Shown: positions 57,001 through 63,000 of the stretch, piece after piece
Numbering within the stretch: the stretch's first letter is position 1
Layout of the letters: every line of letters starts with the position of its first letter
Source: a bacterium
GTDB taxonomy: Bacteria > Patescibacteriota > Minisyncoccia > Phycocordibacterales > Phycocordibacteraceae
Direction of reading: 5' to 3'
DNA: 64,000 nt
Assembly (NCBI GenBank): GCA_037200965.1
Contig: JBBCGK010000001.1
Coordinates: 96,001 to 160,000 of the forward strand
Made by a program: the position numbers

Positions 57001-60000
57001 AATGCCCACGCTTCGAGCGTGTCGAGACATTTCTTGATCGTGCGCCAGTCTTTGAGGCCACAGTAAAGCAAGAGCGTCCGGTTCGACGCCTCGATGGTTT
57101 GGCTCGCTTTGTTCGATGCGATCTCAGTCAGAGCGCAGTAGACATTCCGCAGATTGCGGTACGCATCATCGCTTACGCGCTTGTCGATCCATTCCTGTCG
57201 CATGTACCGCAAAGCCGGCTTGTCTTGATAGGCAAACGGAGCTTCGCGGTAGTCTCGGACCTTATGCTTTTGTTCGCTTTGGTTTGGTGTCATACGGTTC
57301 GATGAGCGTGCGGCCGCTCGTGATGTCCTCGAGGTAAAACCGCGACAGCGCGTCGTAGTACCTCACCAGATTGAAGGCGATGTCGTGCAGGTCTTGGTCG
57401 TTTACGTCCAAGCCAAAGTCATGCTTCAGGATCGCACGGAGCTTCTCCAGCGTTTCCGGTTTGATTTTCACAGGTCTTAGTCCTCGGCATAAATCCGTAC
57501 TTTGACCTGTTTGAGCTGGTTGAAGAACGCCTGCGGTTCGACCGCAAGCTCGCGATTCCAGTATCGCTTCACCAGAGAATCCAGGTCAGGGCTCTTGCCG
57601 AAACAAAAGAGCACCTTGTGCGGATTTCCCCGATCCACGACCTCCAGAGAATCAGGAATGAATAATAAAAGCACCGCGACCAATGCCAGGTCGGCGGTTT
57701 TGTAATAATTGTTTTGCATGTGGCATTTTCATTGTCATTAACGTCCTCTCACACGCATTCATTGTGGCAATTTGGCATACGCTTCTGGAATACTGCGAGC
57801 GTGTAGTCAGACACGAAAAAAGCAGCCATTTTGCTGCTTGTCGCTCCCACTTATTAACTACATCAGAGCTACACCTCTTTTATTTTGTATTCCGGATTGA
57901 GTTTGTATCCGTTTACGGCGCGGCCAACGATAAAGCTGTCGATGCCGAGCGCGTAGCGCACCTTGCGGTTGATCATGAGCTTCGCGTTGTGGAGCGACTT
58001 GCGGTTCTTGCTTCCGGTCAATCCTACAAGCTCGTCCGTTGGCACATACCCCTTTCGTTCAAGAAGGACCCGTACGATTTTCTGCCGTTGCTTTTCCGTA
58101 CCCATCGAGTAGCAATGCTTAGCTTTCGGCTCGCGGTACAGGTCGCCATCTTTTGAAAAGTAAACGGTCTTTTTACTATCTGCCGGCTTGGTTCGCTTGC
58201 CGGCAAGGCCGTATGCCGCGCCTTCGGCCGTGAGCTTCGCCACGCTTGTTTCCAAGTCCGCGATTTTGCCAAGCGCAGCCAGATACGCTCGTGTCATTGC
58301 TTCTATGCTCCGGCTGTTTTGATTGAGCGCACCCACCAATGCTTGAATGGCCAGATCGTCGGTCTTTACCAGTTCGGCCGGCCGCTCGATGTCCGCAAAG
58401 TCCCTGAGCGCGGATCGCAGTTCGCCGGTAATCGCAGAGGTAGAAAAGCGATAAGCATTCGCCATACCGACAGACCGGTTCGTATTGAATTTGTACGTCT
58501 TGGCCAATGTGGCCTTTTTCATCTTCATAATCATCTTTAAGCCGTATTGCTTATTCTGGATAAGCTACTTGTGCTTAAGCTTAGTATATCATATAATGCA
58601 CTGGAAGTTAGCTTTAAACTAACTATAGGTAAGTATATGGATAATAAACCGACAAAAGGTCAATATGTAGAGGTCTTATTGAGATCTCCCAAAACCGTCT
58701 TTTCAATCAAAGACGTGGCTTTGTTATGGGGAGAAGAAGCTGAAAATGCTGTTCGCGTCAGATTAAACAGCTACGTAAAAAGCGGTAAGTTGATCCGAGT
58801 ACATCGCGGCTTTTATGCTAAAGACAAGAATTACAACCGTTCTGAATTAGCGACTGCGATCTACACTCCCTCTTACATCAGCTTTGAGTCTGTTTTAACT
58901 CGTGCCGGTATCAACTTTCAATACTACGGCAATATTTTTGTTGCTTCATACGTGACCAGAGAGATCGAAGCTGATGGTCAAAAAATCTCTTTCATCCGCA
59001 TGAAAGATTATGTCTTAAGTAACACTGCCGGCATCGAGCATACGGAAGGTATTGCCACAGCAACTAAGGAGCGCGCTTTCTTGGACCGGATTTATGTCAG
59101 CAAAGACTATCATTTCGATAATTTGGATGCTTTGGATTGGGATAAAGTCTTTGAGATGTTACCTATCTACCACAACAAGCGAATGGAAAAGAAAGTAAAG
59201 ACCTATCTCGAGCACTATAAAAGCAACCAGCCCGATAAAGCGAAAAACGTATGACTTTAGATTACTCAAAGCACAAAGCAATATTGCTCCAAATTCTCAA
59301 GGATATTTATTCCGATACTTCGATCGCTCCTCACTTGGGTTTCAAAGGCGGGACGGCCGCGCTTTTATTCTACGGACTCAATCGTAACTCGGTAGACTTG
59401 GACTTCGATCTGTTGGACGAAAGCAAAGAGGCAGAGGTCTTTGAGAAGATTCAGAAAATCACTGCGGCCTATGGAACGATTACCGATTCCTACATTAAAA
59501 AGTTCAATCTCCTGAATGTTATCTCTTACGCACCTGGAGCACAGAAGATAAAAGTCGAAATCAATCGCCGGAACTTTGGCTCGCGCTATGAGCTTAAGAC
59601 CTTGCTTGGTATCTCCATGCTGGTCATGGTGGAAGCTGATACATACGCCCACAAATTGATGGCCATGTACGAGCGCGTCGGTAAGACGAGCCGTGATATT
59701 TTCGACGTGTACTATTTCGAAAAGAAAGGCTGGGATATCAATAAAACTATTGTTGAGGATCGTTCCGGACTGTCATTCAAGGACACCCTCGCCAAGTGCA
59801 TCGATTTGCTGGAAAAGATGGATAACAAGCACATCTTGGATGGCTTGGGTGAATTGCTGACAGATCCGCAAAAAGATTGGGCCCGCGCCAAGCTCAAAGA
59901 AGAGACTATTTTCTTGCTCAAAGTAAAAATGGAAGGCTTGGGCAAGATTGATACCCTGCCGCCATATACTTCGGCCGATGTTGAAGCTATACAAACCATA

Positions 60001-63000
60001 CTCAATGATAAGTTCTTTAAGAACACTCCTTTTGCATGCGAGAAATTGACGGTTAAAAAGGATAAAGTGTTTTTCGAAAAGAACAGCTCTGACGAGGATA
60101 GCTACGGGTACGACATTGAGTGCGTGCTTTTGCAGGATGGTAAGAAGGTAGAAGTCTCGATCGATCCGATAACAAACAAGGTCGGCGCAGATCAAGTTGC
60201 CCATCTCATAGCACATACCGTTTGGGCAAAGCTGGATCAATCGATGACCAGTCAGCTTTGGAAGAATTTTCCAACCAACCTATAAATTTATGCCAAAGGA
60301 AATCGCCAAAAAGTCATTGAATAAGAACTTGCACAAGGCAAGCGCCGCGAAGAAAGATGAGTTTTATACTCAGATTGTTGATATTGAAAAAGAGTTGAAA
60401 CACTACAAAGATCAATTCCGTGGCAAGGTAGTGTATTGCAACTGCGATGATCCATTTGAGAGCAACTTCTTTAAATATTTCGCAGGAAATTTCAATGCAC
60501 TCGGACTGAAAAGACTTATTGCCACTAGTTACAAGCCGTCTCCTATAGCCAATACGCAATTAGGGCTATTTGGCGACATCAAGGCCATAAACACGCCCAA
60601 GGGCCGTCCTAAGGTAACCGCGAACAAATTCATTATCAATGAAGTTGATGATATAGACGGCGATGGCGCATTTGACTTGCGTGATATTGCCGAGCAACTC
60701 AAGGCTAACAAAAACAATGAATGGGCTCCATTAGAGGGTGAAGGAGATTTTAGAAGTGAAGAAAGCATAGAACTGCTGAAGCAAGCTGATATTGTAGTAA
60801 CAAATCCGCCTTTTTCCTTGTTCCGCGAGTATGTCGCACAGCTAGTAGAACACAACAAAAAGTTTTTGATTCTAGGTGACCAAAATGCAGTAACCTATAA
60901 AGAAACCTTTGGCTTCATCAAAGAAAATAAACTATGGCATGGCTACGACAATGGTGGCACAAAATGGTTTCAGGTTCCTGACGATTATGACATTGAGACT
61001 GAATCAAGAATAAAAGTTGAGAATGGTATAAAGTTTTTCAGCATGGGTAGAATTGTGTGGTATACAAACCTCGAGACCACAAAACGTCACGAGAAAATAG
61101 TCTTGTATAAGAAATATACACCAGAGGAATTCCCTAAATATGATAATTCCGATGTTATAAACATCGATAAAGTCTCCGATATTCCGATGGATTATGACGG
61201 AGTGATGGGTGTACCAATTACTTTTGTTGATAAATATAGTCCAGCACAGTTTGAAATTTTGGGTATCGCTAATTCCGCAAGATGGATTGGTTACGAATGT
61301 TTTACCTTGATTAAAGGTAGGAAAATATATAATCGAATTTTAATTAAGCGTAAAAAATAATATGAAAATTGATCTAAACAAAATTACTGTGCGGGAAGTC
61401 GTGAATGGCTACAAAGATGGCTCTGAGGAGGGCGTTGTTGCGTATGGTGGAAAGCTTGATGTGCGCCCGAAGTATCAGCGCGAATTCGTATACAAAGACA
61501 AACAGCGCGATGCGGTTATTGATACCGTTAGAAAAGGCTTCCCTCTCAACGTGATGTATTGGGTGAAAACCGATGACGGAAATTTTGAAGTACTTGACGG
61601 ACAGCAGAGGACAATCAGTCTAGGCCAGTATGTAAATGGCGACTTCTCGGTGGATTTCAATGGTCGCCTCGCTATGTTCCATAACCTTACCAAAGAGGAG
61701 CAGGAACAAATTCTGAACTACGAATTGATGATTTATTTCTGCGAGGGAAACGATAAAGAGAAACTTGATTGGTTTAAGACAATCAATATTGCCGGAGAGC
61801 GTTTAACCGACCAAGAGCTACGCAACGCTGTATATACCGGCCCGTGGCTTTCTGATGCAAAGCTAAAATTCAGCAAATCAAACTGTGCGGCGTATTTGTT
61901 GGCAAACGATGGCGGACAGTTAATTAGCGGCTCGCCGATCCGGCAAGAGTATTTGGAAACCGCACTCTCGTGGATAAATAACGATGAAGTGGCCAATTAC
62001 ATGGCCAAACATCAACACGACGAGAATGCAGAGGAATTGTGGGCTTACTTCCAAAGCGTTATTGCATGGGTACGAAAGACGTTCCCAAATTACCGCAAGG
62101 AAATGACGAGTGTGAATTGGGGTGAGCTATACAACGAATTCAAAGACAAGAAATTGAATGAGACTAAGCTCGAAGCCGAAGTTAAGAAGTTGATGCAAGA
62201 CGAGGACGTGACGAAAAAGTCCGGTATCTACCCTTATGTCTTAACGGGACAGGAGCGAGAGCTTTCTATCCGCGCTTTTACCGACAAGATGAAGCGTGAA
62301 GCATACGAGCGGCAAGATGGCATCTGCCCGTTTTGCAAGAAAAAATATGACATCTCAGAAATGGAGGCCGATCATATTGCTCCATGGCATGAAGGTGGAA
62401 AGACTACGGCCGAAAATTGTCAGATGCTCTGCAAACAAGACAACCGGACGAAGTCTGGAAAATAAGGTTATGAAAGAGTCCCATGAAAATCATCCGAGCT
62501 ATACAATTTTTCTTTCGTAGGATTTCATGGAGACAGAGAACCTCTCCCTCCTTTGCTTTTGAAGTGGACAAAAAACCGAACTGGCTCGTCTATGCTTGGG
62601 GTGTCTTTGCCGGCTTCTTTTACAGCATCTTTCAGCGACGACGCGAGTCATTAAGGGTACTTTACCGCAATCAGGAACGCCGGAAGACTGAGTACACCAT
62701 ACCGATGCAGATCGTGCGGCAGTCTATGGGTACGATCTTGGTTCTAATACTGGCACTGGTCGGAGTAACCCTCGCTGATTGGGGCGTCGAGAAGCTCGCA
62801 AATCTACTCTCTCAGGTGCAGGCCGGCTGGTTTATAGCTTTCGCCGCACACTTTAATTTCTTTACGATTCCCGACAAAGAATTCTTTAAGCTCGTGCTTG
62901 AGATATCTATTGGCGCGATCTCCGCCATCCTCGGACTCTTATTTGCTTTATACGCGGTCGGTCTCCAGCTCACGACCGATAAGTACTCGTCTAAGGTGTC

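Follow-up and report, generated by a model that had tools for sequence, protein, structure and literature searches.

A long-form AbiEii toxin with a fused, uncharacterised C-terminal domain in an AbiE module on an integrated element of a Patescibacteria bacterium

AbiE is among the commonest toxin-antitoxin and defence modules, and the closest described relatives of the locus reported here come from Streptococcus agalactiae and Lactococcus lactis (Dy et al., 2014, PMC3985639; Arrowsmith et al., January 2026 preprint, 10.64898/2026.01.19.700257). In these systems, a COG5340-type antitoxin with an N-terminal winged helix-turn-helix (wHTH), AbiEi, is encoded ahead of a DUF1814 toxin, AbiEii, with a 4-nt ATGA overlap between the two open reading frames (ORFs) and with dyad symmetry in the promoter. 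Mutation of any of four AbiEii motifs abolishes toxicity: motif I (hG[G/S]), motif II (Arg, then DhD), motif III (Lys...Arg) and motif IV (+DxxD) (Dy et al., 2014, PMC3985639). COG5340-DUF1814 pairs also make up MenA3-MenT3 (Rv1044-Rv1045) and the other MenAT systems of Mycobacterium tuberculosis (PMC7450476, PMC11375011). Here, we describe an AbiE operon in a 64,000-nt stretch of a Patescibacteriota genome (GenBank assembly GCA_037200965.1, contig JBBCGK010000001.1, positions 96,001 to 160,000; hereafter the window), which shares the gene order, the overlap, the promoter symmetry and the toxin motifs of these systems and which encodes a toxin with an additional C-terminal domain that occurs in no characterised AbiEii.

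The gene for the antitoxin and putative autoregulator, abiEi, extends on the forward strand from an ATG at 58637 to a stop codon ending at 59254 and encodes a COG5340-type protein of 205 aa. The toxin gene, abiEii, extends on the same strand from an ATG at 59251 to a stop codon ending at 60285 and encodes a protein of 344 aa. The ATGA at 59251-59254 is common to both ORFs, and a preliminary description of this locus had given both the span of the pair (58637-60285) and the 4-nt overlap exactly. A mechanical ORF list offers a longer abiEi that begins with a TTG at 58547; we placed the start at the ATG at 58637 because homologous antitoxins all open with MDNKP or MDKK at an ATG. An identical toxin protein is encoded on three independent contigs (the NCBI metagenome-assembled genome, or MAG, Logan SRR28211700 and Logan SRR10968228), which indicates that the ORF is not an assembly artefact. 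The same layout, with the antitoxin directly upstream of a DUF1814 toxin, was found in six related loci (L003-L005 and L012-L014). In the public record, the toxin (MEJ0053281.1) is already annotated as an 'AbiEii/AbiGii toxin family protein' and the antitoxin (WDN10_00935) is labelled 'hypothetical'. As judged from sequence, we conclude that the pair is a genuine, intact AbiEi/AbiEii toxin-antitoxin module on an integrated element of a small-genome Patescibacteria bacterium.

The preliminary description had identified the second ORF as AbiEii and had proposed a search against Pfam PF08843, which gave a clear match (56.5 bits against a gathering score of 22.5; expectation value, E, 5e-15; residues 15-165). 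The PADLOC AbiEii model PDLC02324 also matched (E 2.3e-77), covering residues 5-227 only of the 344, and no NCBIfam model matched the toxin. The nucleotidyltransferase (DUF1814) part of the protein, residues 1-228 (59251-59934, forward strand), contains motif I at G33-G34 (FKG33G34), motif II as R45-N-S47-V-D49-L-D51, motif III as K135-LMAMYE-R142 and motif IV as R148-D149-I-F-D152. The residues of motifs I-IV and S47 (codon 59389-59391) are invariant across an 18-sequence alignment of relatives. The R.S.DLDF motif reported previously fits RNSVDLDF exactly, and the accompanying FKGGTAL is a trivial slip for FKGGTAAL, as found in LGFKGGTAALLF. The spacing between motifs I and II is 14 residues, compared with the x15 written for S. 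agalactiae (PMC3985639), and the toxin core is shorter than in S. agalactiae and L. lactis, at about 230 aa.

A structure model of the toxin generated with AlphaFold2 (AF2) had a predicted local distance difference test score (pLDDT) of 87.6 and a predicted template-modelling score (pTM) of 0.83. A Foldseek search with this model returned the DUF1814 nucleotidyltransferase JHP933 of Helicobacter pylori (4OK0/4O8S) at the top (E 8.5e-8), followed by polymerase (pol) lambda, pol beta and terminal uridylyltransferases (TUTases), and the toxin is predicted to adopt a pol-beta-like nucleotidyltransferase fold. JHP933 was also the closest solved structure in a search of Protein Data Bank (PDB) sequences (E 3.7e-5), and it shares the motif block KG.TA....GLNR.S.DLDFD. 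A profile of the toxin family reached only JHP933 among PDB sequences and none of the MenT toxins, for which no extra C-terminal domain is reported (PMC7450476, PMC11375011). JHP933, a protein of 232 aa, corresponds only to residues ~1-230 of the window toxin and is uninformative on the remainder.

A search for relatives of the toxin found ~6,500 proteins, of which the best 120 were listed, one representative per 90%-identity cluster. Nearly all of these 120 are ~231 aa long, with 76-91% identity to the window toxin across its first two thirds. Most belong to Patescibacteria, in which the same search showed AbiE pairs to be very common. The abundance of such pairs in this group and the existing annotation of the toxin make the locus less unusual than the preliminary description implied. 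What is new is a rare long form of the toxin with a fused, confidently folded and uncharacterised domain that also circulates as a small separate gene. The family assignment in the preliminary description stands, and the ~113 residues that the window toxin has in addition to its relatives, which form this extra domain, had gone unnoticed.

The extra domain spans residues 231-344 (59941-60282, forward strand) and belongs to an uncharacterised family. Short-form Patescibacteria operons (L012/L013 and L014; toxins within P0012-P0120) resemble the window operon in layout, in the palindrome upstream, in a catalytic domain that is 78-91% identical and in an antitoxin that is up to 89% identical, and differ in that their toxins end at about residue 231. 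Among the best 120 relatives, only 12 are long forms (P0001-P0011 and P0014); these are 340-360 aa and align over their full length. Among the 13 long forms, the 114 residues of the domain are 41-85% identical and keep their hydrophobic pattern, and they are predicted with a pLDDT above 90 over most of their length, both within the whole protein and alone. The predicted structure has the element order α-β-β-β-α (helix, three strands, helix). Its fold may resemble that of a dsRBD or of a ribosome hibernation factor, for which the structural match was not clear-cut. An acidic isoelectric point (pI ~5) was found in 17 of 21 members, and the conserved positions are mostly hydrophobic, with the addition of N22, T29, Y57, K80, W95 and S104 in domain numbering; no catalytic residues are conserved.

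Database searches with the domain gave no Pfam family above its cut-off, no PHROG match, no relative of its profile among PDB sequences, and no match in IMG/VR, INPHARED phages or PLSDB plasmids. We rejected identity with PepSY, for which the score was 17.2 bits against a cut-off of 24.3 and a PepSY_2 hint appeared in only two of 21 members, and homology to AbiEi, to which hhalign assigned a probability of 0.2%. A phage or plasmid origin was likewise discarded on the negative searches of IMG/VR, INPHARED and PLSDB. A word-index search with the domain alone returned nothing although 89%-identical proteins exist, which is a limitation of the index, and the domain profile was instead run exhaustively against 1.84 billion cluster representatives. 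This search returned 12 proteins, comprising eight stand-alone relatives, three repetitive false positives and one chimera. The chimera (P0121, 146 aa), in which an N-terminus resembling triose-phosphate isomerase precedes the last ~73 residues of the domain, is probably a product of assembly or gene calling.

The stand-alone relatives (P0122-P0127, P0129 and P0130) are proteins of 102-118 aa that align from end to end with residues ~236-343 (profile E 8e-16 to 1e-4). They start exactly where the junction lies in the long toxins, from which we conclude that the long form arose when an entire small gene was fused to abiEii at its 3' end. Two Cys residues are conserved in the fused forms and are not conserved in the stand-alone proteins. 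Fusion with a formerly adjacent third gene was considered and rejected, as short-form operons contain neither a third gene nor a remnant of the domain downstream. One candidate for an unfused pair of enzyme and small gene, at L019, was also rejected, as the 217-aa neighbour is a secreted collagen-like protein and not a nucleotidyltransferase.

A neighbour-joining tree of the catalytic domain, built quickly from distances and lacking support values, placed the long forms at no fewer than six distinct positions among the short forms. The short-form operon L012 is 91% identical to the window in the catalytic domain and 89% identical in the antitoxin, and the long-form operons L003-L005 are only 72-76% identical in these two parts. 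The scattered long forms and this pattern of identity indicate that the extra domain has been repeatedly lost or moved by recombination. We conclude that the domain is modular and that it appears to be dispensable for basic AbiE function.

We also assessed the antitoxin. The PADLOC AbiEi model PDLC02255 matched over residues 9-192 of 205 (E 2.8e-58), which amounts to a full-length match, and 21 further AbiEi models matched more weakly. The representative of its 90% cluster bears the JGI name 'predicted transcriptional regulator of viral defense system', and the protein is 72-89% identical to the antitoxins upstream of related toxins. Several results weigh against the assignment. Pfam AbiEi_4 reached 22.3 bits, below its cut-off of 25 bits, over residues 40-61 only; NCBIfam TAA_AbiEi (NF047376) reached 35.9 bits against a cut-off of 150 (E 5.8e-9, residues 18-150); and PDB sequence searches with the antitoxin, as a single sequence or as a profile, detected no solved AbiEi and gave no alignment to 6Y8Q. 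In S. agalactiae, AbiEi has a conserved antitoxicity loop (D85/E86/I87). The window protein differs from the S. agalactiae and L. lactis antitoxins in that identity is too low for a direct match to the curated AbiEi models. The earlier reading of the first ORF as AbiEi-like holds for the family, and the wHTH N-terminus claimed for it is weaker than stated. The 'hypothetical' label and the failure of the curated models indicate that this AbiEi clade is under-recognised.

The 102-bp gap between abiEi and the divergent gene upstream holds a -35 element, a -10 element and a palindrome. Read from the sequence, the promoter-like site (58569-58597, forward strand) consists of the -35 hexamer TTGTGC (58569-58574), a 17-nt spacer and a perfect -10 hexamer, TATAAT (58592-58597). 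A simple promoter scan misses this site because the -35 hexamer matches at only three of six positions. In an alignment of six related abiE upstream regions, from short-form and long-form operons, the TTG of the -35 element and the ATA.T of the -10 element are conserved columns. The palindrome is an imperfect one of 31 bp, ACTGGAAGTTAGCTT-T-AAACTAACTATAGGT (58600-58630, forward strand), centred on 58615 with inner arms at 58606-58614 and 58616-58624. It lies just downstream of the -10 element and overlaps the expected transcription start, a position conserved across the six related loci, and it is a candidate AbiEi operator.

Conservation of the palindrome extends to its pairing. Across the six loci, 83% of cells pair between the arms, compared with 21-51% when the arms are slid by one to three columns, and five of the 15 pairs change on both sides. 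The covariation score was 0.316 against a shuffled mean of 0.172, and none of 500 shuffles reached it. This pattern fits a dimeric wHTH repressor that co-evolves with its candidate operator, and by analogy with Dy et al. (2014, PMC3985639) AbiEi may bind there. An RNA hairpin would give the same covariation signal. Three further points count against an operator: the covariation rests on six sequences of which two are near-identical, the outer arm is degenerate in the window, where 11 of 15 pairs are Watson-Crick, and the single dyad downstream of the -10 element contrasts with the pair of repeats, IR1 and IR2, around the -35 element of S. agalactiae abiE (PMC3985639).

We also considered how the toxin might be neutralised. 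In MenT1 (T39), MenT3 (S78) and S. agalactiae AbiEii (T65), antitoxin-induced autophosphorylation neutralises the toxin, and the phospho-acceptor is a Ser or Thr two residues before the first catalytic Asp (PMC11375011; 10.64898/2026.01.19.700257). S47 of the window toxin occupies the equivalent position, as it does relative to S78 of MenT3 and the other two acceptors, and is invariant in 18 of 18 sequences. In S. agalactiae, autophosphorylation of AbiEii is induced by AbiEi, which binds the toxin, and AbiE was moved from type IV to type VII on that basis (Arrowsmith et al., January 2026 preprint, 10.64898/2026.01.19.700257). The 'type IV' of the preliminary description is the conventional label and, given this reassignment, is probably outdated. 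The same preprint reports that S. agalactiae AbiEii modifies transfer RNA (tRNA) with a preference for UTP and that, as MenT4 illustrates, having the pair does not guarantee phosphorylation.

We consider it quite probable that the locus is an intact AbiE module (COG5340 plus DUF1814/COG2253) that is carried together with a type II restriction-modification (RM) pair on a serine-recombinase integrative element. Its mechanism can be predicted from the homologous AbiE of S. agalactiae and MenAT of M. tuberculosis. Free AbiEii would add nucleotides to the 3' ends of tRNA through the pol-beta-type site formed by G33/G34, D49/D51, K135/R142 and R148-D149..D152, and this modification would stop translation and growth. 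AbiEi would repress the operon by binding the palindrome at 58600-58630 and would neutralise the toxin, most likely by binding it and inducing autophosphorylation of S47. Phage infection or loss of the element would then remove AbiEi control and release the toxin, which would result in abortive infection or post-segregational arrest.

The module may instead serve mainly for addiction, that is, for post-segregational stabilisation of the element and its RM cassette, and not for phage defence; we regard this as rather unlikely, though as an alternative to be taken seriously. The pair is carried on a serine-recombinase element of foreign G+C (GC) content, in close succession with the genes of an RM pair, a module that is addictive in its own right. 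S. agalactiae AbiE expressed in Escherichia coli gave no protection against 32 coliphages (10.64898/2026.01.19.700257), so that not every AbiE can be presumed to act against phage, and this result counts against the defensive part of our explanation. However, L. lactis AbiE is a demonstrated abortive infection (Abi) system, the DUF1814 toxins RlegTA and SanaTA affect T7, and the neighbours of the window pair are defence genes. Stabilisation of the element and defence against phage are, moreover, not mutually exclusive.

We next turn to the possible role of the extra domain, on which the neighbourhoods of its stand-alone relatives bear. A metagenome scan with an alignment of stand-alone proteins only returned four loci. 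One stand-alone gene (P0125, L010) lies directly upstream of a TIR/ThsB-like gene, another (P0127, L011) lies upstream of a Bro-N protein that matches the PADLOC candidate PDC-S13 (E 3e-91), and a third (P0129, L021) lies directly downstream of a Shedu SduA_C protein. P0126 is upstream of proteins of 297 and 185 aa without assigned family. P0122, on a metagenome contig unrelated to the window, is beside a pair of genes for a LexA-like protein and a Y-family polymerase. A pair of this kind (LexA-like Peptidase_S24 and Y-family polymerase, IMS) is also present in the window at 51166-53002 on the forward strand, just left of the integration site. Together with the fusion to AbiEii, these neighbourhoods are suggestive of a defence-island accessory module, on an anecdotal basis. 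Weighing against it, P0123 is located among housekeeping genes, and recognised defence genes adjoin only three of the eight stand-alone families read. The stand-alone genes are not linked to AbiE. From the acidity of the domain, its want of conserved catalytic residues and the location of stand-alone relatives next to other defence effectors, we infer a binding or regulatory accessory module and not an enzyme.

The role that we favour for the domain, ahead of a targeting module and then of a functionless read-through, is that of a sensor or regulator in cis, and we put it forward as a tentative proposal that is more likely wrong than right. As a sensor or autoinhibitor, the domain would keep the nucleotidyltransferase inactive before binding of a ligand from the phage or the cell, and AbiEi would be mainly a transcriptional repressor and a back-up neutraliser. 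CapRel-type defence proteins, which are fused toxin-antitoxins, provide an analogy. Consistent with such a role, the domain is modular, with long forms scattered through the tree of the catalytic domain, and the window catalytic domain is closer to a short form (91% identical) than to other long forms (72%). Its acidity and lack of conserved catalytic residues also fit, as does the direct adjacency of stand-alone relatives to the unrelated effectors TIR, Shedu and PDC-S13, and the pTM of the full-length model suggests a defined packing against the enzyme. On the other hand, the antitoxin has been kept and barely differs from short-form antitoxins (89% identity), and the support comes from only a handful of genomic contexts.

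Two other readings of the domain fare less well, and the greater part of the probability falls to a binding role of some other kind. The domain might target the enzyme to its substrate by recruiting it to tRNA or to the ribosome, which we consider improbable. Lastly, it is very improbable, and already largely refuted, that the long ORF represents an artefact or a read-through in decay, with 114 functionless residues. The overwhelming ~231-aa length of the listed relatives and the obvious chimera among the database proteins with the domain (P0121) are outweighed by the identical protein in three independent assemblies and by the conservation of 13 long forms down to 41% identity with their hydrophobic pattern kept, the high pLDDT over most of the domain and the existence of independent stand-alone homologues.

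The genes that follow abiEii belong to the RM pair. An EcoRI-like N6-adenine DNA methyltransferase is encoded at 60290-61360 on the forward strand (Pfam PF13651, 444 bits; PADLOC MTase_II, 2.3e-118), and a protein with DUF262 (GmrSD_N, 68.5 bits) and HNH nuclease (44.6 bits) domains at 61362-62465 on the same strand is its probable restriction partner (PADLOC REase_II PDLC03418, 1e-146, full length). The gaps between successive genes, beginning with abiEi and ending at the nuclease gene, are -4, +4 and +1 nt, and the methylase and nuclease genes are possibly co-transcribed with abiE. The long-form abiE locus L005 is likewise followed by RM genes, which are type I-like. An ORF of 827 aa with a weak DUF2254 match runs from 62483 past the end of the window at 64000. 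The Logan contig L001, which is 100% identical to window positions 49251-64000 and extends 6.3 kb further, encodes after this ORF proteins of 367 and 197 aa without assigned family and then a DUF2726 (nuclease-like) protein; the DUF2254-like ORF and the genes after it (together L001 positions 13233-17925) may constitute a further defence cassette on the same element.

The preliminary description had placed the pair on an element, in agreement with a large serine recombinase gene 2 kb away, with a fall in GC content from ~60% to 39-55% and with a left end at a tRNA-Asn gene. The recombinase (54775-56502, reverse strand; Resolvase, Recombinase and Zn_ribbon_recom domains) has 575 aa in the gene call made on L001, and the longest ORF extends to 56550. 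The tRNA-Asn(GUU) gene at 54590-54900 on the forward strand, which forms the left boundary of the element, contains a group I intron of 236 nt at 54624-54859 (Rfam RF00028, 64.1 bits against a gathering score of 50). ARAGORN misses the gene on the raw sequence, and the form spliced in silico is a canonical tRNA-Asn with CCA. The intron lies at anticodon-loop position 35/36, an exact match to a Patescibacteria-specific class of tRNA group I intron (mSystems 2026, PMC13011429). The last ~40 codons of the recombinase gene (54775-54900, reverse strand) run antisense through the 3' exon of the tRNA into the intron, from which the element appears to be integrated at the 3' end of the tRNA gene; the C-terminus of the recombinase may have been altered by the integration. 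We found no convincing long direct repeats marking att sites, which is in keeping with integration by a serine recombinase; at its right end, the element extends past both the window and L001.

The AbiE/RM block (~58600-62500) has a GC content of 39-46%, the rest of the element (54900-58500) one of 47-55% and the host (1-38000) one of ~60%. The cassette seems to have entered the element at a later time and probably came from a lower-GC Patescibacteria lineage. Upstream of the pair, the element genes at 56709-58534 on the reverse strand encode a DUF5659 protein (80 aa, 57477-57719) and proteins of 69, 194 and 221 aa without family match, and the 194-aa protein has a faint PHROG hint of a replication-initiator-O-like function (E 0.097). 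A second low-GC island at 37972-45541 (35-39% GC) encodes GT4 and GT2 glycosyltransferases, a Wzx-type polysaccharide flippase and a PMT_2-like membrane glycosyltransferase, and is a surface-polysaccharide locus of foreign composition. The earlier suggestion of a small-genome organism accords with a parent MAG that has a 960,259-bp contig and with a host DnaK that is 82-85% identical to those of Paceibacterota, Parcubacteria and Patescibacteria.

How AbiE toxins are switched on during infection has been named as an open question (10.64898/2026.01.19.700257), and a domain fused to the toxin in some lineages provides a concrete handle on AbiE activation. The near-identical enzymes of long and short form constitute a natural experiment on the control of these toxins. 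More speculatively, and with considerable doubt, residues 231-344 could be a portable and hitherto undescribed defence-island module, a sensor or regulator in cis that ties release of AbiEii to a phage or cellular cue and that, as a separate protein of ~106 aa, would have the same role for TIR, Shedu and the PDC-S13 Bro-N protein. If so, the domain would be a shared 'trigger adaptor' in Patescibacteria immunity. The fusion also offers a lead on immunity in ultra-small, episymbiotic bacteria that are hard to culture.

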